IMG/VR virus record: IMGVR_UViG_3300017791_000021
Location: 32,001 to 96,000 of that record
Direction: 5' to 3' (one strand)
Source of the DNA: a virus
Taxonomy: Duplodnaviria; Caudoviricetes
Length of the DNA stretch: 64,000 nucleotides
Part shown: positions 1-32,234 of the stretch, piece after piece
Position numbering within the stretch: position 1 is the first letter of the stretch
Layout of the letters: each line of letters begins with the position of its first letter
The notes under the pieces: model-generated
Told to the model about the DNA's origin: nothing
Seen by the model: only the letters and a program-made list of their open reading frames with translations
Databases searched by the model: none
Made by a program: the position numbers and the translations under genes

Positions 1-213
1 AAAGCCAAGAGACATCCACTCAAGAATGTTGCGGTCTTCAAATGATGGGTGACGACGGAGGTGAATTTCTATGATATGACCAATACGCGGATCATTGTCT
101 GCGTTATCCGGGTCATAATCCGGAATTTCTTCGATCTTCTTACATGGCCAACAAATAAGCAAACCAGTCTTGTGTACTGACTTGTCCTTATATGGGTCAA
201 ACGTGTCTGTCAT
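1..213 (-). CDS. hypothetical protein, runs off the left edge (MTDTFDPYKDKSVHKTGLLICWPCKKIEE...)
   Basis: ATG at 213 with upstream AAGGA; frame open to position 1; CxxC motif. Confidence 0.65.
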   Translation of the reverse strand, partial: MTDTFDPYKDKSVHKTGLLICWPCKKIEEIPDYDPDNADNDPRIGHIIEIHLRRHPSFEDRNILEWMSLGF

Positions 214-262
214 CTAGTAGTCCTTTTGTATTTCGTCTGGTTCAACCATCTCATCTTAACAG

Positions 263-294
263 AAAAAGGCTCCCCAGTCTATCCTAGGGAGCCT
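263..294 (-). terminator. rho-independent terminator after rpf
   Basis: GGCTCCC/GGGAGCC stem followed by TTTTT on the minus strand. Confidence 0.8.
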
Positions 295-299
295 CCTTC

Positions 300-902
300 T
301 TAGTAGTTCACAGTGATAGTAAGAACTTCACCAGGAAAGATCAAGTTGGGATTATTCCCAATGACCTTCTTGTTTGTCTTGTATATCTTGTGCCAGTCTA
401 CATTGAAGTACCAACCAATGAAGGACAGTGTGTCGCCTTCCTTTATGCGGTAGGTGAACGTGGTGTGCACGTTATTCTTCGGGGCGCTCTGAGTGGTCTC
501 AGGAGCCTTGTAAGTCTTCTCAGGTGCCTTATGTACGGAGGAGCGACGTTCGGCGCTTCTAGACCCCGTAGAGTCGCTTGGTGAGCTATTCCCACTGCGG
601 AAGCAGTTAGGCCAAGCTCCAGGGCCTTGCGAATTCAGGACTTTCTCAGCAATTGCAACCTGCTGAGAGGGTGTAGCGTTGTAAGCGTGCTGAGCATACT
701 TACCTCCGCCATAGGATAGCCATGTGGAATTGAGGAACTGTAGTCCCCCTTCAAACATTCCGGCCGTATCATGCCAATTACCACTGGATTCACACTGAGC
801 TATAGCGTTCCAGTCAGCAGAGCTTGCGTTAGCTGTAGTAGCAATACTCGCCAGACCAGCCGCGATTGCGGTAGTGGCAACAATCTTTTGTGTCTTGTTC
901 AT
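300..902 (-). CDS. rpf: resuscitation-promoting factor (Rpf transglycosylase) with C-terminal LysM and Sec signal peptide
   Basis: WNAIAQCESSGNW...GGLQF...TW...GG...A..ATPSQQVAIAEKVL..QGPGAWPNC is the Rpf core with catalytic Glu; YRIKEGDTLSFIG...NPNLIFPGEVL is LysM; signal peptide ends ANA. Confidence 0.93.
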   Translation of the reverse strand: MNKTQKIVATTAIAAGLASIATTANASSADWNAIAQCESSGNWHDTAGMFEGGLQFLNSTWLSYGGGKYAQHAYNATPSQQVAIAEKVLNSQGPGAWPNCFRSGNSSPSDSTGSRSAERRSSVHKAPEKTYKAPETTQSAPKNNVHTTFTYRIKEGDTLSFIGWYFNVDWHKIYKTNKKVIGNNPNLIFPGEVLTITVNY

Positions 903-1391
903 TTACTTAACCCTTCCAAAGGAGATGCTTGCGTGAGATTCCCAGTACTTCGAGTAAATAACTTCCTTGCGGACCTTAGCACCGGAATAGGGGGCAGCTA
1001 TCATTGTGGAATGGTGATTGATAACGCCGATGTAGATACCAACATGGTAAACATGATGAGTACCCTTATAGGAGAAAAATACTAGATCTCCAGGCTTACG
1101 ATTCTTCCAAGCGATATGCGTTGTAGTGTTGTACTGCTGTTGAGCGGTGCGGGAGATCTTCTTTCCCGCTTTCTTGTAGGAATACTGCGTAAGACCAGAA
1201 CAATCGAAACTGTTCGGTCCTGTAGCACCAGAATGGTAAGGATCACCAATCTTGGACTTAGCCACCTTAACAGCGGCTGGTGCGTAGTTTACTGCTGCGG
1301 AAGCATCAGGTGCAAGTGCTAGACCTGAGCCAACCAGCGAAGCAATCATGGTGCTGGTAACAACTGCACGCTTTCCTATACTACTGGACAT
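903..1391 (-). CDS. secreted NlpC/P60 peptidoglycan endopeptidase (RipA-like catalytic domain)
   Basis: GDPY..GATGPNSFDCSGLTQY, PGDLVFF, HVGIY motifs; start moved to ATG 1391, giving a signal peptide ending ASA. Confidence 0.9.
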   Translation of the reverse strand: MSSSIGKRAVVTSTMIASLVGSGLALAPDASAAVNYAPAAVKVAKSKIGDPYHSGATGPNSFDCSGLTQYSYKKAGKKISRTAQQQYNTTTHIAWKNRKPGDLVFFSYKGTHHVYHVGIYIGVINHHSTMIAAPYSGAKVRKEVIYSKYWESHASISFGRVK

Positions 1392-1464
1392 GGATAGTCC
1401 AATCTCTAGACAATAAGGACGGTTCTTACAAATCAAATGTCTTTGTTCTGTAACAACTGACCTA

Positions 1465-1494
1465 AGACTACAGCCCCTGACCGACATCTGTCAA
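1465..1494 (-). promoter_or_regulatory. sigma70/HrdB-type promoter for the nlpC-rpf operon, inside an 11-bp inverted repeat (1470-1480/1496-1506)
   Basis: TTGACA-18-TAGTCT on the minus strand. Confidence 0.75.
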
Positions 1495-1526
1495 CTCAGG
1501 GGCTGTGGTGCAATGTTAGGAAAGTA

Positions 1527-1811
1527 CTACCAAGTCTGTCCTAGAACGCCATCATCTTCAAGTCTTTCCAGCTTGTTCTTGTAGAAATCAGGGGTTGTGA
1601 CAGTCTGTAGACGCGCTGGTACACGCATTTCACGCGCCATACCAACACCGTAGTACGGAAGACTCAGTTGCTCACGTGCATCATAGGTCAAGTTCTGAAT
1701 CTTGTCATCTGTGTCTGCGCACTCTACATTGGGGCGGATCTTCTTGTAAAGTCCGTCAGTTGCTCCCTCATTAAGGGATGCATTCATTGATCTTAGTCGT
1801 GGATAAGCCAT
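1527..1811 (-). CDS. hypothetical protein
   Basis: 94 aa, start directly abuts the upstream stop. Confidence 0.75.
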   Translation of the reverse strand: MAYPRLRSMNASLNEGATDGLYKKIRPNVECADTDDKIQNLTYDAREQLSLPYYGVGMAREMRVPARLQTVTTPDFYKNKLERLEDDGVLGQTW

Positions 1812-2000
1812 TTACTGAGCCTTTCTAGGTCTGCCTGCCTTGCCCTTGGCTACCTTTACAGGCTTTACAGCCTTATAGGTTGCAGCAGACGCGGCTGTAA
1901 CTTTCTTCGGATTCTTCGCTGAGCCAACAGTTCTCTTGTCTGTGGCACGTCTCGGAGCAGCTACTTTCTTTGCTGCTGCCTTCTTGATTGGTTCTGCCAT
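1812..2000 (-). CDS. small Lys/Ala-rich histone-H1-like protein with C-terminal AT-hook
   Basis: KKAAAKKVAA repeats and terminal GRPRK; AGGAG SD. Confidence 0.7.
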   Translation of the reverse strand: MAEPIKKAAAKKVAAPRRATDKRTVGSAKNPKKVTAASAATYKAVKPVKVAKGKAGRPRKAQ

Positions 2001-2011
2001 TTGTACTCCTA

Positions 2012-2341
2012 TTAAGGAAGAGAAGGATTCTGGGGATAACTTGTACCACCATAGCCAGACTCTGTTCCAGAGAAGTCACCAAAGTTGGAAGAGAAGGAGT
2101 CATCTACAACAAGAATATCGGCAATTCCTGGTGGATAGCTTCTATAACCAAATCGATTGGGAATCTTTCCGATATTAGGAATTGGCGGTCTTCTATTTGC
2201 AGCCTCAGCGGTAGCATTATCTAATAACTGTTGCTGGACAAGTTGTTCCTGCATGGACTGGAAAGGGCGAGTCCAGTTATATATTGAGTTATTGCCCTGT
2301 TCGCGCTTATCAGGATTGTAATTGGTATTCTGCTTTTCCAT
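2012..2341 (-). CDS. hypothetical protein
   Basis: likely start MEKQ at 2341, TAATG overlap with upstream stop. Confidence 0.7.
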   Translation of the reverse strand: MEKQNTNYNPDKREQGNNSIYNWTRPFQSMQEQLVQQQLLDNATAEAANRRPPIPNIGKIPNRFGYRSYPPGIADILVVDDSFSSNFGDFSGTESGYGGTSYPQNPSLP

Positions 2342-2904
2342 TAGAGACTCATCCCACTTCCTGTTTGACTCCAACCAGGTAGATTGTACTTTGAGTGGAA
2401 GGCTCTTACGTTAGGGGACACTACCTTCATTTGTGGATCGAAAGCAATATTCAGTTCCTGTGCGAATTGCTTTGCTTCCTCATTAGTAATGTACTTACCA
2501 CCATGAGCTAGTCTTTCCGCTGGATTACCTTGAGCAGCATATCTATGCTTATCTCCTGCCATGCGTCTCTCCAGAGAAGAGTAAGGAGTCAAATCATCCG
2601 GCCAGAAGTAATCTGTTGGTGAGATTCGTGATCCTTTGTGCACCCCTCTGGTATAGCTACGGGCATTATTTCGTACGGTTTGTAGAAGCTTATCCTGACG
2701 TCTATCAACGACAGAGCCTAGATAACCATCAGGATATTGTGCCTCTGGAGTCTTGCCTGTAGCTGCGGCTAGTCTAGCATCAAGGATAGAGCGGAAGCCA
2801 GAGATAGGCATTCCTCCGCCACCACCATACTGTGTGACAGAGCCTTGCTGTCCTACAGGTGGATTGTAACTGACGTTATTCATACCTGCAACTGAACTAG
2901 GCAT
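2341..2904 (-). CDS. hypothetical protein (YPDGYLG...RSYTRGVHKG)
   Basis: 187-aa ORF with GAGGA SD. Confidence 0.75.
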   Translation of the reverse strand: MPSSVAGMNNVSYNPPVGQQGSVTQYGGGGGMPISGFRSILDARLAAATGKTPEAQYPDGYLGSVVDRRQDKLLQTVRNNARSYTRGVHKGSRISPTDYFWPDDLTPYSSLERRMAGDKHRYAAQGNPAERLAHGGKYITNEEAKQFAQELNIAFDPQMKVVSPNVRAFHSKYNLPGWSQTGSGMSL

Positions 2905-2911
2905 AATTCCT

Positions 2912-3292
2912 CTATTCTATATCGGCTGTATTTACAGCCAAGTGTTCCGCGATTCGTTCTTGAATGGCCAACGTGCGCTTATCGGTCTTCAAGTCCTCCT
3001 CTGCTCTTGCGCGGTCGTGCTCGCTCTGTCTATTTTGACTCATTAGAATCAATGGCGCACTATAAAATGCGAACGCACTGAACGCTAGGTTCAAGAATAC
3101 AAATGGAAATGGATCATAACGCATTCCATGTGGAGCCAGTGTATTCCACAATATCCAACCTAGGACTACGATAGTAGCCCACGCAATGAAAGATAACTTG
3201 CCAATGGCATCAGTCATAGCATCAGGTAATTTATCTACCCAGGATTCTTTCTCGAATCTAGCAATATTCGCGGGGTGCTGATTTAGTGTCAT
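2912..3292 (-). CDS. DUF1003-type membrane protein
   Basis: WILWN...YDPFPFVFLNL...APLILMSQNRQ..DR signature, two TM helices. Confidence 0.8.
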   Translation of the reverse strand: MTLNQHPANIARFEKESWVDKLPDAMTDAIGKLSFIAWATIVVLGWILWNTLAPHGMRYDPFPFVFLNLAFSAFAFYSAPLILMSQNRQSEHDRARAEEDLKTDKRTLAIQERIAEHLAVNTADIE

Positions 3293-3307
3293 TGGCTATT
3301 GCCTTTC

Positions 3308-3628
3308 TTACATAGCGCGACCGTACTTAGCCTTTGCGCGGAATGAATCTGTCCAGGAACTACGAGAAGGCATCATCAGAACTCTCTTGCACATCTCTCC
3401 AGCCTCAGCGGCGTTCTGAGCGTACAGAGTTGCTGTCGGATGCAGGGAGGCACCCATCTTCTCAAAAGAGGCTCTACGGTGTCCTGTAGGCCCTTGTAGG
3501 GCGTTCCCGCCCTTGCCTGCTCCACCCTTAGGGCGTAGTCTTCCACGCTCTGGTCTTCCGGTGCGGGCAAGCATAGCTGCTTCAGTCCCCATTGTTGGGC
3601 GACTTCCTGTGCCAATTTCTTCGGCCAT
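3308..3628 (-). CDS. basic hypothetical protein
   Basis: 106 aa, AGGAG SD. Confidence 0.7.
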   Translation of the reverse strand: MAEEIGTGSRPTMGTEAAMLARTGRPERGRLRPKGGAGKGGNALQGPTGHRRASFEKMGASLHPTATLYAQNAAEAGEMCKRVLMMPSRSSWTDSFRAKAKYGRAM

Positions 3629-3640
3629 TGTTTCTCCTAA

Positions 3641-3865
3641 TTAAGAACGGTAATAACTCAGGGCGCGGTTTTGCTGATAAGTGGTGGAACTCATTCCATT
3701 AGTTGTAGAACCTAATGGTGATAGTACCGAAGAAGGTGAATAACTCTGGGGTGCCATTTGCTGGACTGTATGAGTAGTGCCCTGTCCTACAAGCCCAGTG
3801 GCTCCAGAGGAGAATTCAGCGGTACGTGATTGTGGAAAACTGTTATCCACTGGCTGTGCTGGCAT
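3641..3865 (-). CDS. hypothetical Ser/Thr/Gln-rich protein
   Basis: 74 aa, GGGAG SD. Confidence 0.65.
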   Translation of the reverse strand: MPAQPVDNSFPQSRTAEFSSGATGLVGQGTTHTVQQMAPQSYSPSSVLSPLGSTTNGMSSTTYQQNRALSYYRS

Positions 3866-3882
3866 TCGGGACTCTCCCCTGT

Positions 3883-4164
3883 TTAAGAAATGATTAGCTT
3901 AAAGATGAGAGCGCTTATCTCTCCGTCGTCCATAACCACAGTTGCAAAACCGGGACGGCAGGACAACACATACCCTCTAGGACCAACATAGGATTGAGCA
4001 ATAGCGACAGCCTTCATCGACTGGTTAACTGCTGCTGCTCCGATAGCACGAAGAGTAATATCCTTATTGGCATAGACATTGTTAGCAATCGCTGCTGCGA
4101 GGGATGATGCGGAAGAGGCGGACTTCACTTTCAGAAGAACCTCATTGGGGTTCAGGTTATCTAC
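3883..4164 (-). CDS. spoVS: SpoVS-family protein (Alba-like fold)
   Basis: LKVKSASS...LAAAIA...LRAIGAAAVNQSMKAVAIA...LSCRPGF matches SpoVS; probable start ATG about 4167 after GGAGAA (start approximate). Confidence 0.85.
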   Translation of the reverse strand, partial: VDNLNPNEVLLKVKSASSASSLAAAIANNVYANKDITLRAIGAAAVNQSMKAVAIAQSYVGPRGYVLSCRPGFATVVMDDGEISALIFKLIIS

Positions 4165-4214
4165 CATATTTTTCTCCAAGTTTATAGTACATGTCTCCTA
4201 CTGATTATACAGAT

Positions 4215-4255
4215 AAAAAAGAGACCTATACCCGATATACAGGTATAGGTCTCTT
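4215..4255 (-). terminator. rho-independent terminator after ruvC
   Basis: 14-bp perfect inverted repeat AAGAGACCTATACC plus T-tract. Confidence 0.85.
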
Positions 4256-4282
4256 AGAAGGGAGATAGCAAAGGAGGAGTTG

Positions 4283-4777
4283 CTAACTAGATTGTATCAT
4301 GAGTGCGATGCCATAGGCATCTGCTAGGTTGTCGTTGGTTATTTCGGGATCGAATTGCTGGATTGCGGCAACCATATCTTCCTTAGAAGCCTTGCCAGAG
4401 CCTCCGATGAACTGCTTGAGAGCTGTTGGCTGGACTGTCTGAGGATTCTGGTCAAAGACAAGCTTTGAGACAAGCTTGACAATTCCTCCGAGTTCTCCAA
4501 GCTTTTCCCGATTGAGCTTGGCTCCATATGCATATCCCTCCATTCCTATATGGATTGTAGCTCCCGATCCTTGATGAATAGCGAAGTACATCAGTAAATC
4601 ATCGTAGATATTAACTAATCGGTCTGCTTCGTCCTTGAATTTATTCAAAGGGTATTTCAATAAGCTTTTCTGGTGGCAATGGCCACTCTCGTCTAACACA
4701 ACAAGCCCGAACCCTGTATAGGACTGATCGATTCCTATAAACAGGGATTCGGGCTTGCGTGGTTCTAAATCACTCAC
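4283..4777 (-). CDS. ruvC: RuvC-like Holliday junction resolvase
   Basis: IGIDQSYTGFG, MEGYAYG, LKQFIGGSGKASK, DNLADAYGIA. Confidence 0.88.
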   Translation of the reverse strand: MSDLEPRKPESLFIGIDQSYTGFGLVVLDESGHCHQKSLLKYPLNKFKDEADRLVNIYDDLLMYFAIHQGSGATIHIGMEGYAYGAKLNREKLGELGGIVKLVSKLVFDQNPQTVQPTALKQFIGGSGKASKEDMVAAIQQFDPEITNDNLADAYGIALMIQSS

Positions 4778-5039
4778 CTATTACTGTCCTGTCGTATGTT
4801 CTGTAGCCATTCTTTGTCTTATGGACTTCATCCGCTATCTCAGCCCAGATGTGCATCACGCGAGGCTCACCGAGTGGACGAGAGTACACAGAGGGAGCGG
4901 GACCATCAGGCATCGAATCCCAATATTCCTTAATGTACTCGTCTCTGTCAGCAGAAGTCTCATGAATGGAATATCCGTCAAAGCTGGTTCCCCAGCCTGC
5001 CTCAGATTCTACCCATTCCTGTACCACCATTGTTGGCAT
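4770..5039 (-). CDS. hypothetical protein
   Basis: likely start MPTMVVQEW at 5039 after GAAGG. Confidence 0.65.
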   Translation of the reverse strand: MPTMVVQEWVESEAGWGTSFDGYSIHETSADRDEYIKEYWDSMPDGPAPSVYSRPLGEPRVMHIWAEIADEVHKTKNGYRTYDRTVIGE

Positions 5040-5137
5040 TACTTGCCTTCCTTCCAACATGTGGTGTAGTCCCAGCAATGGGGACAGTATTTCAGTCCCC
5101 GTCGCTTCCGAATCCACCATCGTAGTTTATTGATCAC
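5039..5137 (-). CDS. 32-aa Cys/Trp-rich micro-protein (MINKLRWWIRKRRGLKYCPHCWDYTTCWKEGK)
   Basis: GTGA and TAATG overlaps with both neighbours; below ORF-track cutoff. Confidence 0.5.
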   Translation of the reverse strand: MINKLRWWIRKRRGLKYCPHCWDYTTCWKEGK

Positions 5138-5226
5138 TTGGTCTTGTTCCAGAAATCCCAGCATATCTTAGAGCAATACGGAAACCACTTAGGAGTAGCT
5201 TCAGCAGCTCCACACTTACACAGCAT
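5134..5226 (-). CDS. 30-aa Cys-rich micro-protein (MLCKCGAAEATPKWFPYCSKICWDFWNKTK)
   Basis: GGAG SD, CxC...CxxxC, fills gap between genes. Confidence 0.5.
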   Translation of the reverse strand: MLCKCGAAEATPKWFPYCSKICWDFWNKTK

Positions 5227-5473
5227 CGTACTCCAGTAGAGTCGGAAGGAATCCCAGGGGATCACCTTCAATGTAAAGGCCCTGATAGTTCTTCTCACCC
5301 TCAAGAACGTAGCGAATCTCAAAGGTCATTCCAGTACCACCATAACCGCAAGTATCACAGCCATCGTTGTACGGACCCTCTGTGTCACCAAAGTGAGCCT
5401 TAGTAGCTATGATGTTCCTCTCATCAGCCAGATAGGCGATAAGCATCTTCTCAATACGGTCAAAAACGTCCAT
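5216..5473 (-). CDS. hypothetical protein with CxxC
   Basis: 85 aa, TAATG coupling. Confidence 0.7.
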   Translation of the reverse strand: MDVFDRIEKMLIAYLADERNIIATKAHFGDTEGPYNDGCDTCGYGGTGMTFEIRYVLEGEKNYQGLYIEGDPLGFLPTLLEYDAV

Positions 5474-5862
5474 TAGCCCCTCACTTCTATGATTCGGTCC
5501 TTGAGTCCGGCACGAACAGCCATATCATATGTCATCTGAGTTCCACGGTTTCCCGCGCCCTCTAGGAAACACGCTACCACGTAATCAGGGTTTAGGTCAA
5601 TCATCTCCTGATTCCTCTTGGCATATGCCCAACCCTGCTGCTTCAATGGCGGATGCGGAATAACCTCCCAATCGGCTCCAGTAGCCCAGGAAGCCCCTAT
5701 AAGGTCCGCTCCGCCGTACGGACACTCTCCATGGTGCAATTCCATCGGAGACCAGTGCCAGTCGTTCTCATGGGCCTTCTCTAGCTTCCTGAGGGCATCC
5801 CAGATGAGATGAGCCTTAGCCATCGGCCAATCTCGGGAACCAGTGATCACTACAACGGTCAA
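5473..5862 (-). CDS. SLOG-superfamily (DUF2493/YspA-like) protein
   Basis: VVITGSRDW, LHHGECPYGGAD, KRNQEM, GNRGTQMT..MA. Confidence 0.8.
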   Translation of the reverse strand: MTVVVITGSRDWPMAKAHLIWDALRKLEKAHENDWHWSPMELHHGECPYGGADLIGASWATGADWEVIPHPPLKQQGWAYAKRNQEMIDLNPDYVVACFLEGAGNRGTQMTYDMAVRAGLKDRIIEVRG

Positions 5863-11121: not shown

Positions 11122-11394
11122 TTACTTCTCGTTGTCAATATTCTTCGGACGACCAGTGATCAGGCGAACGCTGTCACGGACCAGACCAACACCGAAACCA
11201 CCCAGACCCATGACAGGCCATGCAGCAACCATACCGCCTCGGTAAAGACAGCAGACCAGCATACCCAGATCATGACCGTACTTCTCACGGTACTGCTTAA
11301 GGCTCTTGCCGTTATCCAGCAGATCGCTGAGCGTAGTTCCCGACCCGATGAGCCAAATGAGTCCGCCAACAATCCAAGCGCCAATAACCAGCAT
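11122..11394 (-). CDS. membrane protein
   Basis: two hydrophobic segments, AAGGAGG SD. Confidence 0.7.
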   Translation of the reverse strand: MLVIGAWIVGGLIWLIGSGTTLSDLLDNGKSLKQYREKYGHDLGMLVCCLYRGGMVAAWPVMGLGGFGVGLVRDSVRLITGRPKNIDNEK

Positions 11395-13952: not shown

Positions 13953-14084
13953 CTAGAACCAGTCAAAATCTCCGTCACCGAAGTACCAAATACCTCCGAG
14001 TGCCAGCAAGATAATGCCCAGCCATACAGGTCCATGGGACAACAGAACGATGACTCCTGCAATTACGCATATAAGTTCAAACAT
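13953..14084 (-). CDS. 43-aa two-TM membrane micro-protein
   Basis: MFELICVIAGVIVLLSHGPVWLGIILLALGGIWYFGDGDFDWF. Confidence 0.55.
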   Translation of the reverse strand: MFELICVIAGVIVLLSHGPVWLGIILLALGGIWYFGDGDFDWF

Positions 14085-14235
14085 TCTTCGGCCAACCGTA
14101 CATATTCTTCCAGGTCTCCATGTCACCTGTTGCAGCCACGTACTGAATGGTCAGCAGGAAAAGCTTAATCCGCTGGACATTCTCATAGAAATTATCGCTG
14201 CGCTCTTCCCAAATGACCTTCAGTGCGTCAAGCAT
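14077..14235 (-). CDS. 52-aa hypothetical protein
   Basis: AGGAG SD; MLDALKVIWEERSDNFY... Confidence 0.6.
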   Translation of the reverse strand: MLDALKVIWEERSDNFYENVQRIKLFLLTIQYVAATGDMETWKNMYGWPKNV

Positions 14236-23338: not shown

Positions 23339-23395
23339 CTCTAGTAGTCCATAGACAGAGCTAGGTTTCCCTAGCCCTGACTAAAGCATACTAGC
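23339..23395 (-). repeat. structured intergenic repeat B, copy 2
   Basis: GCTAGTATGCTTTA-hairpin-TATGGACTACTAGAG. Confidence 0.65.
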
Positions 23396-23738
23396 GGTGA
23401 CGACGAGTCGTAGTACGACGCTTGGTGGTCGTGTGCTTCGTAGTCGTAGTGTGCTTGGTGGTGGTACGAGAACCATTGCTGTGAACAGTGGTAGTCGTGT
23501 TGTGCTGAACAGTCACGTGGTGCGAGGTGACGTAGCTGCTGCTGACGTGGTGCACAGGGTGCAGGTGGTTATTGTACAGACTTGTGTGGCTGTGGTAGTA
23601 GCGGTAAGGAACGTAGACGTAGTGTCCGTGATCCCATACCTGCTCATACCCACCGTCGCTGTATCCGCCGTTACCACACGCAGTAGCACCGGTCAGGATG
23701 ACAGCAGCCGTACCGACAGCAGCAAGAAACTTCTTCAA
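23391..23738 (-). CDS. His/Tyr/Thr-rich lipoprotein
   Basis: MKK + hydrophobic core + ATAC lipobox; TTTKH repeats. Confidence 0.75.
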   Translation of the reverse strand: MKKFLAAVGTAAVILTGATACGNGGYSDGGYEQVWDHGHYVYVPYRYYHSHTSLYNNHLHPVHHVSSSYVTSHHVTVQHNTTTTVHSNGSRTTTKHTTTTKHTTTKRRTTTRRHR

Positions 23739-29732: not shown

Positions 29733-30631
29733 TAGAAATCTCCGTCTGCCACCTGGAGAACCTTGATCCCCAGCTTACGAATACGTCGGACAACCCTGTT
29801 GCGGTCATCCAGCCACACGTGAACACGGTACTCGTCACGCACGTACTTGTCAAACAGGTGTTGCTTGACATCCGCATCGTTGATTCCCTGCATGTCAGCC
29901 GGACGCATGAACAGGTGATCAAACGTCACACCATGCCCATGCAGCCAATCCGCAGTGTCCTGACGGACGTTGTTGATATCCGGACGACCAGACATAATGA
30001 TGATCTCGTATCCATCATCAGCGTACAGGTTGACCAGATTGATAATCGACTGGAACGGACCATCAGTCAGCACGCGGCTGTAGTCGTACGGAGAGCGCGC
30101 AATGTGCTCAGCAAGGGTTCCGTCCACGTCCACCACGATAGCCGCAGAGGAGCCGTCCTGAGGCACGTACAGAGGCGACAGGACCACATCGTTCATGAAC
30201 TCAGGGGTCAGCCTCCAAGGCTTCTGGAGCTGTCGCGCCATATTCCGGATGACAGTCTCACCAACCGGCTCATCTCGCTGTGAATCGCGCTCAATGCAGG
30301 TCTCTACAGGAACATTGGTGAAGTCAGCAACAAGGAATTCCACATCCCCGTCAAAAAGCTTCTTGATTCGAGTAGGAGATTTCTTGTTCAGGTTGGTGTC
30401 GTGAACAATAACGTCCTTACCTTCCTTGATAGCACGAACGATAATGTCATCCTGAATCTTGGATACCAGATCCTCCTGACCCTTAGTGCCGACAGGAAAG
30501 CATCCAATCATTGCACGAATATCATCACGAGAAACCAGAACGATCTGCTCAGGGTCCTGCATCTGATGAGCAGTTGCCCACGTGCTCTTACCCGATCCCG
30601 GAAGACCAGTGGTCAGGATAATCTTGCGCAT
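29732..30631 (-). CDS. pseT: polynucleotide 5'-kinase / 3'-phosphatase (T4 PseT-like)
   Basis: GLPGSGKST, SRDDIR, DTNL; HAD domain DVDGT, SGR, DDR. Confidence 0.92.
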   Translation of the reverse strand: MRKIILTTGLPGSGKSTWATAHQMQDPEQIVLVSRDDIRAMIGCFPVGTKGQEDLVSKIQDDIIVRAIKEGKDVIVHDTNLNKKSPTRIKKLFDGDVEFLVADFTNVPVETCIERDSQRDEPVGETVIRNMARQLQKPWRLTPEFMNDVVLSPLYVPQDGSSAAIVVDVDGTLAEHIARSPYDYSRVLTDGPFQSIINLVNLYADDGYEIIIMSGRPDINNVRQDTADWLHGHGVTFDHLFMRPADMQGINDADVKQHLFDKYVRDEYRVHVWLDDRNRVVRRIRKLGIKVLQVADGDF

Positions 30632-30768
30632 TATTTCTCCTTAACTTGCTCTCTAGTGGCGTCTAATATTGCTTTGAAATCTTTTCGGTGCCAGACTAAT
30701 CGTTCTAGTATATTCATAGACATACCAGCAGCGATACCAGCTATTAATGCGATTAGAAATTCGTGCAC
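30631..30768 (-). CDS. 45-aa membrane-anchored micro-protein
   Basis: AAGGAG SD, GTG start, MHEFLIALIAGIAAG... Confidence 0.55.
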   Translation of the reverse strand: MHEFLIALIAGIAAGMSMNILERLVWHRKDFKAILDATREQVKEK

Positions 30769-30773
30769 AAGAT

Positions 30774-30834
30774 CTCCTTGTTAGATAAATCCAAAAGGAC
30801 TCTCAGCATACTGAGAATCCCTTTGAATTGACCT
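30774..30834 (-). repeat. structured intergenic repeat A, copy 1
   Basis: AGGTCaaTTCAAAGGG-hairpin-CCTTTTGGAtTTATCTAACAAGGAG. Confidence 0.75.
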
Positions 30835-31463
30835 TACTTAGCGTGCAGCTTCTTCAGAATTGCCGGGTCCATCGGCTGAGCGGGCATCTCAATAGCCTTG
30901 AGACTAAGCGGAGAAGACTCTATCATGACCGTTGCAGCCGTTACACAGGACTGGTGGTAACCACCCTGAGCATCGAACCAGAAGATACCATCACTGCCAC
31001 ATGCGCTACCACCATAGGATAGGTCATCCTGCGGCATCGGAACAGCCTGAGATCCATCATTGTACTGACCGATCTTGTAAATACCATCGGTAGCAGTCAT
31101 CTGCGAATCCATGGAACTGATCTTACCCTTAACCGTAGAGAAGAACACCTCACTGCGACCGCTCGGGAAGATGTAAATGTACTGAGTCTTGCTCTCGTCA
31201 TTCAGGAACAGATCCCGCTCACGCAGCATCTTCAGCTCCAGAGGATTGTGCATCTGAGAAGCAGGGTACTGATTCTCAACGTTCTTCAGCGCCTCGTTGT
31301 ACGCCTTGATCGTCTCCTGCTCATTCTGGTTCTGAATCTGATTGACGCTCTTTACATCCTGGCCAACCTTCGGAGAAGAACCACCATCACCCATACACGC
31401 GGTAGAAGTACCCGCGATGAGAGCGACAGCACCAGCAGCCAGAGCGATACGCTTGCCATTCAT
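30834..31463 (-). CDS. lipoprotein
   Basis: signal peptide ending STAC; GGAGG SD. Confidence 0.8.
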   Translation of the reverse strand: MNGKRIALAAGAVALIAGTSTACMGDGGSSPKVGQDVKSVNQIQNQNEQETIKAYNEALKNVENQYPASQMHNPLELKMLRERDLFLNDESKTQYIYIFPSGRSEVFFSTVKGKISSMDSQMTATDGIYKIGQYNDGSQAVPMPQDDLSYGGSACGSDGIFWFDAQGGYHQSCVTAATVMIESSPLSLKAIEMPAQPMDPAILKKLHAK

Positions 31464-31485: not shown

Positions 31486-31887
31486 TTAGTTGCAGGTGTC
31501 GGTGTCGAACTGTGTAGGAAGCGTATCAGGCTTCCAGTCCTTCATCAAGGGCTGAGTCTGGAGACCGTTGTAGGTCTGGACATCCTCATTACAGGCAGTC
31601 TGAGCGGTCAGGATGAATCCCTGAGGGTCTGAATCCTTGTAGGTGCTCCGAACGGTGGCAAGGTTCGCCACGTCGCGCTGTACGTCCTTGTAGGCAGCCT
31701 GCCAAGTACCCGCAGCAGCCACACGGTTAGAGACTTCCTGGTTCTGCTTGTGCTCTTGACCGTTGTTGTAGGTACCGCTGAAGATCACACCACCAGCCCA
31801 AAGGCCAACAGGCAGACCCACAAGCAGCAGAGCCCCACCGGTAATAGCAGCAGCAACAGCGAGCTTGCTTGGATCATTCTTTGACAC
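31486..31887 (-). CDS. single-pass membrane protein
   Basis: N-terminal TM helix, AAGGAGG SD. Confidence 0.8.
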   Translation of the reverse strand: MSKNDPSKLAVAAAITGGALLLVGLPVGLWAGGVIFSGTYNNGQEHKQNQEVSNRVAAAGTWQAAYKDVQRDVANLATVRSTYKDSDPQGFILTAQTACNEDVQTYNGLQTQPLMKDWKPDTLPTQFDTDTCN

Positions 31888-31957: not shown

Positions 31958-32234
31958 ACAGATCAAGAGCGGCACGAACAGAATTCACCGCATCATCATA
32001 GCCCTCTTCATAACCAGCCTCTCGGCCATTGTCATAACCAGAGTCATAGCCTCGGTCGTAGTGGACGTTCTCTTCGTCCTCCTGACCCTCAGCGTACGCC
32101 TCATTGAAGAAGCGGTCAAGGAAGTCACTCAGCGCCTCCTCAAGGTTACGAGCGTCATACGGATTATCAGGGATCGTAACCCCGTGATCCGTAAGCGCAC
32201 CGACAATCTCAACTACTCCCTTGTAAGCATCCAT
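31956..32234 (-). CDS. protein with GxxxG (GYDxG) repeats, FliH/Yae1-like
   Basis: YDRGYDSGYDNGREAGYEEGYDD. Confidence 0.7.
   Translation of the reverse strand: MDAYKGVVEIVGALTDHGVTIPDNPYDARNLEEALSDFLDRFFNEAYAEGQEDEENVHYDRGYDSGYDNGREAGYEEGYDDAVNSVRAALDL

Follow-up and report, generated by a model that had tools for sequence, protein, structure and literature searches.

A conserved phage operon for two predicted exported wall hydrolases, an NlpC/P60 endopeptidase and an RpfA-type protein

What would a phage gain from two small wall hydrolases that carry signal peptides and are encoded far from its virion genes? This question is raised by a locus on the viral contig IMGVR_UViG_3300017791_000021 (IMG/VR; Caudoviricetes), of which positions 32,001 to 96,000 were analysed (64,000 nucleotides, hereafter the window). 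Here, a gene for an NlpC/P60 (C40) endopeptidase (P60) is directly followed by a gene for an RpfA-type protein (Rpf). An earlier sequence-only reading had taken the pair for a stand-alone operon by which infected cells wake dormant hosts nearby, with a holin-independent lysis pair as its alternative. Based on the comparisons described below, it seems secure that the two genes form a conserved operon for a pair of exported, cooperating and host-derived wall hydrolases freed from control by cyclic di-AMP (c-di-AMP). As to their use, we tentatively prefer a role in loosening the wall as an aid to lysis.

The P60–Rpf operon and its control

Both products were assigned to the families that had been expected, with all scores above the Pfam cut-offs: NLPC_P60 (PF00877) reached 85.2 bits (cut-off 23; 39 solved-structure relatives), Transglycosylas (PF06737, the Rpf domain) 91.4 bits (cut-off 27; no second such domain in the genome), and LysM in the Rpf protein 30.5 bits (cut-off 20.9). 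It is thus well supported that the pair consists of a minimal NlpC/P60 stem-peptide endopeptidase and an RpfA-type enzyme that cleaves glycan and is anchored to the wall by LysM (Table 1). The P60 is a bare catalytic domain, i.e., a signal peptide plus about 130 aa; its start was set at 1391, since all homologues start there and the alternative start of the longer open reading frame (ORF), at 1487, precedes the -10 element. As previously read, the genes abut on the minus strand (P60 stop codon TAA at 903-905, Rpf ATG at 900-902), and a Shine-Dalgarno-like GGAAGGG is located inside the 3' end of the P60 gene ahead of the Rpf ATG; the two genes appear to be translationally coupled. Both N-termini revealed the Sec-type organization seen before, namely a basic n-region, a hydrophobic h-region, and A-x-A (..ASA-A and ..ANA-S), which is kept in 25/25 aligned homologues of each protein. 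Signal peptides and export were read from such sequence features, by which both products are predicted to be Sec-exported.

The record comprises 111,015 bp with a G+C content of 48.7% and a 141-bp direct terminal repeat. Though no nucleotide match to the phage collection was obtained by megablast (window 1-3000), protein matches and synteny placed the genome with the Streptomyces phages BRock, pSt2308, GiJojo, Alone3, and LuckySocke, and its assignment to a virulent BRock-like Streptomyces myophage is well supported. BRock itself is a virulent myovirus of 112.5 kb with a G+C content of 52.3% (PMC7453282). The P60–Rpf pair was detected in unchanged order in all seven relatives examined, i.e., in these five phages and in two related viral loci, L006 and L007, so that the conservation of the gene pair, which the sequence-only reading had left to a survey, is confirmed.

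The active sites had been called intact, which applies to the Rpf and to two positions of the P60. In the Rpf, the Glu of the CES motif and the Cys pair (C37, C100) align to the solved domains of RpfB, RpfE, and RpfC; across an alignment of 25 sequences, C37 and E38 are invariant and C100 is nearly so. We take the Glu of this C-E-[ST/A] motif to be the catalytic residue. For the P60, alignments of 25 and 11 sequences revealed no exchange of Cys64 (D-C-S-G) or His116 (H-V-G), and the third triad position of the phage protein is occupied by Ala132, as it is in L007. This position is His in the aligned host homologues, L006, pSt2308, and the BE-cluster phage Coruscant, Asp in BRock and a fusion protein of viral locus L012, Asn in GiJojo and the BK-cluster phage JustBecause, and Glu in the P60 domain of the phage's own tail protein. 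In alignment A2, Ala is shared by a clade that makes up 11 of the 25 sequences and reaches down to about 52% identity, and a conserved His126 lies within a clade-specific insert. Since the Ala state persists to this distance with the catalytic dyad intact, the P60 is probably active, perhaps attenuated.

The TTGACA-18-TAGTCT promoter proposed earlier is present, and its -35 together with a TA[GT]NNT -10 is kept in L006, L007, BRock, and pSt2308. It overlaps a hairpin that closes the upstream gene. The 72-nt stretch with this hairpin folds at -32.6 kcal/mol (z = -5.1), and its stem is altered in sequence in BRock and pSt2308 with complementarity kept. Thus, the co-varying stem and the kept -35 and -10 are good evidence for a real terminator-promoter module. 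A simple consensus scan misses the promoter because its -10 fits TATAAT at 3/6 positions, and such a scan also misses the terminator because the loop exceeds its limit. The same design, consisting of a hairpin with TTGACA in one arm, a T-run, and a TAGGCT -10, was found at genome positions 105934-106000, outside the window, where a 351-aa gene starts 32 nt further downstream; such overlapping modules of terminator and promoter may therefore be a habit of this phage. Motifs of this promoter class gave 49 coding-strand matches compared to 12 on the opposite strand and 6.5 +/- 2.6 in shuffled sequences. Placed by crude gene calls, 17/49 precede a called start by no more than 150 nt and 16/49 are intergenic, and on these counts we rejected the assumption that all matches are promoters.

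In the leader, no c-di-AMP riboswitch was detected (RF00379 not matched in window 1-3000 at E <= 10), in agreement with the sequence-only reading, and no other Rfam family of note was matched in the same range at that threshold. Just upstream of the P60 start lies a short leader element, which is retained in GiJojo despite an HNH endonuclease gene inserted upstream. It revealed no Rfam match and could be a translational or regulatory site; a genome-wide regulatory site was rejected, as the motif occurs once in the genome. At the other end, the operon is closed by the terminator that had been expected (-30.6 kcal/mol, z = -6.24; 0/200 shuffles fold as well).

Table 1. Coordinates of the P60–Rpf operon, its control elements, and further features of the window
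Feature	Position in window	Strand	Remarks
Intrinsic terminator	~261..300	(-)	17-bp stem, including part of the following U-run; begins at the Rpf stop codon
RpfA-type protein, 200 aa	300..902	(-)	predicted signal peptide 1-26; Rpf domain 26-100 (nt 603-827)
C-terminal part of the Rpf protein			Ser/Pro/Lys-rich linker, then LysM, residues 151-197 (nt 312-452)
NlpC/P60 (C40) endopeptidase, 162 aa	903..1391	(-)	predicted signal peptide 1-32; P60 domain 49-154 (nt 930-1247)
Leader element	1397..1420	(-)	just upstream of the P60 start; near-invariant columns in six BRock-like phages
Host sigma-70/HrdB-type promoter	1465..1494	(-)	-35 TTGACA 1489-1494; 18-nt spacer; -10 TAGTCT 1465-1470
Hairpin closing the upstream gene	1471..1507	(-)	-35 in its loop/3' arm (terminator-promoter module)
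Cys-rich 186-aa gene, 5' part	1..213	(-)	first gene of the next block
Replication and nucleotide-metabolism module	~4-35 kb		
Virion module	~35.5-64 kb		baseplate proteins, tail sheath, major head protein, portal
Minor tail protein, 1000 aa	45905-48907	(-)	NlpC/P60 residues 618-713; transglycosylase-like region 776-901 (phrog_12661)

Nearly every gene of the window is carried by the minus strand. The pair lies far from the virion genes, as had been stated, since the virion module begins about 34 kb away. Between them, the replication and nucleotide-metabolism module harbors genes for a RuvC-like resolvase, thymidylate synthase, an exonuclease, RNA ligase, a UvsX-like recombinase, ribonucleotide reductase, DNA polymerase, helicases, primase, DnaB, polynucleotide kinase, and a DnaC-like loader. 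Just after the resolvase gene and about 2.5 kb upstream of the pair, a 98-aa SpoVS homologue is encoded (window 3883-4179, minus strand; Pfam PF04232, 1.6e-22; phrog_35646 "sporulation protein", 9.9e-35); BRock-like phages have a similar-sized gene at this position, annotated as hypothetical. None of the 12 sequencing runs listed as sharing words with the genome is recorded as RNA (all are recorded as "DNA?"). Almost all of them are soil or rhizosphere metagenomes, and one contained at least half of the sampled words.

Host origin and recurrence in other viruses

The best 80 cellular loci with P60 homologues stem from Streptomycetaceae, i.e., almost entirely from Streptomyces (76), followed by Streptacidiphilus (2) and Kitasatospora (1), and from a related metagenome-assembled genome of an uncultured actinomycete (1). 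End to end, the phage P60 shares 49% identity with a small secreted P60 common in Streptomyces, compared to 35% over 102 aa with the P60 domain of the phage's own tail protein, and is therefore host-derived. A scan for RNA families, which covered 25 of these 80 host loci, revealed the RF00379 c-di-AMP riboswitch directly upstream of the P60 gene in 17/25 at gathering score (7/8 + 10/17); at the corresponding position, the remaining eight gave RF00379 matches below this threshold (31.5-37.4 bits, E 4e-5 to 2e-3), so that a riboswitch signal is present in 25/25 at E < 0.002. In eight of the scanned loci (L091, L093, L096, L097, L102, L104, L105, and L111), the 5' ureB sRNA family (RF02514) was also found about 2-3.8 kb upstream of the riboswitch-gated gene, and due to this recurrence the host P60 gene appears to occupy a conserved chromosomal locus.

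For the Rpf, paralogues were compared in five Streptomyces genomes. The highest score was obtained for a longer paralogue of the Rpf-LysM-M23 type, which lacks a riboswitch; the architecture of the phage protein is found in the 244-aa RpfA type, together with a strong riboswitch (56-80 bits). The resemblance to Streptomyces RpfA that had been noticed before is borne out by the order of signal peptide, Rpf domain, linker, and LysM (S. venezuelae L175, 244 aa) and by an identity of 39% (218 aligned positions) with the RpfA-type protein of S. venezuelae. Both phage products thus resemble wall-remodelling enzymes of the host over their full length, including the signal peptide. According to PMC5693915 and PMC10117811, seven wall hydrolases of S. 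coelicolor and six of S. venezuelae are preceded by such riboswitches, transcription of rpfA is terminated by c-di-AMP, and rpfA and swlA mutants germinate more slowly; in the latter source, germination is delayed by rpfA deletion as well as by overexpression.

Compared to this Streptomyces set, the phage operon has no riboswitch where host RpfA-type loci have one, its genes form one apparently translationally coupled unit whereas the host genes are unlinked, its context is low in G+C, and its P60 has Ala at the third triad position. An Rpf gene within 4 kb of a host P60 was found in 0/80 loci. On this count, capture of a ready-made host operon was rejected, and the pairing was apparently assembled in phages. 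Altogether, the anatomy and family assignments of the sequence-only reading hold, and the connection with germination and growth enzymes of the host proves stronger than could be seen from the window; its "stand-alone" setting (see below) and a full P60 triad do not hold.

Related viral loci were obtained with an Rpf alignment as query, as the search with the single Rpf protein gave no match. The split pair was identified in 3 of the 80 viral loci kept, namely L006, L007, and L008, the last apparently being BRock itself (identical matches). Other loci encode signal peptide, Rpf, P60, and LysM in one protein of 345-363 aa (L010, L011, L012, and L014), and further arrangements are LysM-P60-Rpf (L032) and LysM-P60-SLT (L041). 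In L010, the fused gene is found just ahead of the one for the large terminase. Among the matches listed for the L012 protein, 120/120 carry both catalytic domains, some with an additional M23 domain; these relatives stem mostly from metagenome contigs, and a few come from Streptomyces genomes. The fusion of Rpf and P60 speaks for joint action of both activities on a common substrate, as distinct from physical binding between them.

Lysis aid or override of dormancy

The operon does not stand alone. Two genes further downstream, just past the window edge, an amidase endolysin is encoded with conserved synteny: the next block consists of the 186-aa gene, a 118-aa gene, and a 310-aa endolysin (genome 30194-31126, i.e., L005 10194-11126), which was identified by a PHROG endolysin match (2.8e-23) and by weak Amidase_2 and PG_binding_1 matches and for which no signal peptide was detected. 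The order P60, Rpf, 186-aa gene, 118-aa gene, and endolysin slot is kept in BRock, pSt2308, GiJojo, L006, and L007. The slot itself is mosaic, with Amidase_2 plus PG_binding_1 in the window phage, BRock, pSt2308, and GiJojo, and a GH25 muramidase in L007 (6806-7669), where the flanking genes and the P60–Rpf pair are unchanged. A few genes downstream of the endolysin, still outside the window, lies a gene for a 474-aa protein similar to DpdA and queuine tRNA-ribosyltransferases (genome 26267-27691, L005 6267-7691; phrog_887, 1.6e-93), which suggests 7-deazaguanine modification of the phage DNA. On a 48-kb IMG/VR contig of different G+C content (L023), positions 2085-5486 carry 186-aa-like, 118-aa-like, and DpdA-like genes followed by a LysM-Rpf gene.

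In the virion module, the minor tail protein also combines an NlpC/P60 domain with a transglycosylase-like region and is a virion-borne counterpart of the secreted duo. With this tail P60 and the amidase endolysin, the phage is thus already equipped with one enzyme dedicated to entry and one dedicated to exit. The members of the pair are small signal-peptide proteins and not domains embedded in a large structural protein.

What, then, is the pair for? We consider it plausible, though short of probable, that the riboswitch-free exported pair loosens the wall before and beside the endolysin, thereby supporting lysis and release and possibly infection of thick-walled neighbours. Host RNA polymerase would transcribe the operon during infection independently of the endolysin block, and both enzymes would reach the outer surface of the infected hypha through Sec. 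By cleaving glycan strands as well as stem peptides in one and the same wall, they would loosen it from outside as host wall synthesis fails, and would form a third muralytic system besides the tail-borne P60 lysin for entry and the cytoplasmic amidase for exit. Most probably, the phage would profit in that thick, non-growing hyphae lyse and release progeny faster or more completely; enzyme freed at burst would thin neighbouring walls too. Consistent with this role are the conserved place of the pair near the endolysin slot (window phage, BRock, pSt2308, GiJojo, L006, and L007), the small P60 gene located 2.5 kb from the endolysin in JustBecause, and the complementary specificities of amidase, endopeptidase, and glycosidase. 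Further, five fused-form records harbor a single P60 domain and none of Amidase_2, GH25, PG_binding_1, M23, Amidase_3, and M15_4, so that the fused protein may be their lysin; this counts for less, as only one of the five records is estimated complete and the search covered only these six other families.

Several other points also weigh against a lysis aid. The operon is separated from the endolysin block by its own conserved promoter and strong terminator, and since the endolysin has no signal peptide, the two systems take different routes to the wall. In the vicinity of the pair, no holin was identified, and no membrane protein adjoins the pair or the endolysin. The nearest one is a 126-aa DUF1003 protein with two predicted membrane segments (9.4e-29; window 2912-3292, minus strand), which is at most a speculative holin-like candidate; other small ORFs resembling membrane proteins or lipoproteins are located at window 11122-11394, 13953-14126, 23391-23738, 30631-30768, 30834-31463, and 31486-31887. 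L007 keeps the Rpf beside a GH25 endolysin, and therefore the Rpf does not just supply a missing bond specificity. Ala at the third triad position speaks against a strongly lytic P60. In Coruscant, the small P60 gene lies among small genes and tRNAs, and in L023 the secreted LysM-Rpf is encoded beside the conserved gene block with no endolysin between. Finally, the 17 well-placed promoter motifs include several in the replication module and none in that of the virion genes, which weakly suggests that the operon is transcribed by unmodified host polymerase before the late genes; inspection of intergenic regions by eye revealed no late-promoter motif common to the endolysin block and the virion operons.

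We are more doubtful that large virulent Streptomyces phages export c-di-AMP-blind, host-type hydrolases to override dormancy as an antiviral refuge, a grading that covers both ways in which this could work, i.e., waking neighbouring spores or aged mycelium and preventing the shutdown of wall growth in the infected hypha. The former, which is the sequence-only reading, is unlikely when taken by itself. By thinning the spore wall or releasing signalling muropeptides, exported or burst-released enzymes would induce germination in spores or aged mycelium nearby, which the progeny could then infect. This would fit the RpfA architecture of the Rpf, the nearest cellular P60 relatives being riboswitch-gated hydrolases (17/25; 25/25 at E < 0.002), the slow germination of rpfA and swlA mutants and the RpfB/RpfE-RipA synergy (PMC5693915, PMC10117811, and PMC4255298), the separate entry and exit lysins, and the fusion of the same three domains in other viral contigs. 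Added S. coelicolor RpfA is also reported to help isolate hard-to-culture Streptomyces (PMC12011840). As sporulation and mature mycelium confer transient phage resistance in Streptomyces according to PMC10117723, selective pressure for such a wake-up exists. However, export to wake dormant neighbours is argued from homology and genomic context, LysM is expected to keep the Rpf on the producer's wall, and rpfA deletion and overexpression both delay germination (PMC10117811). Host-hydrolase ancestry is common among phage lysins and does not fix function, the operon is close to the endolysin, the fused forms resemble lysins, and the P60 triad is incomplete. The holin-independent lysis pair that had been offered as an alternative appears at least as likely as wake-up.

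Preventing shutdown in the infected hypha would presume that infection stress raises c-di-AMP or otherwise stops the riboswitch-gated hydrolases, driving the hypha towards arrest or sporulation; riboswitch-free copies would then keep the wall of the infected compartment growth-like and sustain phage production. Homologues of two riboswitch-gated hydrolases stand here without a riboswitch behind a host-type promoter, in a pairing assembled in phages (0/80 host P60 loci with an Rpf within 4 kb), and the SpoVS homologue lies 2.5 kb upstream. During infection of Rhodococcus by phage WC1, 4/6 host rpf genes and the ydaO riboswitch RNA go up, for which the authors suggest phage-driven avoidance of dormancy (PMC10986025), and PMC10117723 describes repression of Streptomyces development early in phage infection. 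Both a rise of c-di-AMP in infected Streptomyces and wall hydrolase supply as a limit on phage production are assumptions, though, and the best-scoring host Rpf paralogue is the Rpf-LysM-M23 protein without a riboswitch, so we regard this route, too, as rather improbable on its own. Least expected of all is some other or weaker role, e.g., a change of the wall that prevents superinfection or modifies receptors, attack on competing actinomycetes, or an attenuated P60 acting as partner or activator of the Rpf. The stability of Ala132 across its clade (11/25) with Cys64 and His116 invariant and the further small secreted, lipoprotein-like or membrane proteins encoded by the phage would fit such a role, but the conserved catalytic dyad and both signal peptides argue for active exported enzymes, and the data point to no specific alternative target.

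Known systems and significance

The same two enzyme classes as in the phage pair are found in mycobacterial RipA and RpfB/RpfE, which are reported as synergistic on peptidoglycan, as the sequence-only reading had noted (PMC4255298), and the fused viral Rpf-P60 forms argue for joint action of this kind. Differences from RipA are that the phage P60 lacks its N-terminal region and multi-domain architecture and differs in the third catalytic residue; the match is limited to the catalytic part (P60 residues 54-142, E ~1e-8). In PMC4255298, Chandra and Chater noted both Rpf and RipA-like domains in many actinophage tape-measure proteins, one of which degrades stationary-phase host walls (Piuri & Hatfull 2006, cited therein), and hence the duo as such is not new in phages. 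Those tape-measure and tail motifs represent the same domains in phages of the same host phylum, and the window phage has one too, whereas the pair consists of small stand-alone signal-peptide proteins that are predicted to be exported and not built into virions. What is new is this stand-alone exported form: literature searches, which did not extend to supplementary files or most subscription papers, returned no study of a stand-alone secreted phage Rpf or P60. Phage-carried host dormancy genes are the subject of "Phage-encoded sigma factors alter bacterial dormancy" and "Human-gut phages harbor sporulation genes"; those genes encode intracellular regulators in phages of endospore formers, in contrast to the predicted exported enzymes of an actinomycete phage found here.

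A further precedent is provided by Sec-exported endolysins of phages of Gram-positive hosts, such as Lys44 of Oenococcus phage fOg44, which reach the wall without a holin. In comparison, the window phage also has a conventional cytoplasmic amidase endolysin, its pair has an operon and promoter of its own, and the domains are those of growth- and germination-type hydrolases.

Either use is directly testable, as BRock, GiJojo, Alone3, and LuckySocke are cultured relatives, and the phage P60 and Rpf could serve as reagents to recover hard-to-culture actinomycetes. If the pair is a lysis aid, as we tentatively prefer, these phages would run three separate wall-cutting systems for entry, export, and exit, and the widespread fused Rpf-P60-LysM proteins would be signal-peptide lysins. 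If dormancy is overridden instead, the exported pair would counteract the transient resistance that Streptomyces gains through development and would be the first enzyme-based, extracellular anti-dormancy device of a phage, and the c-di-AMP wall-hydrolase regulon would be tied to the conflict between phage and host.

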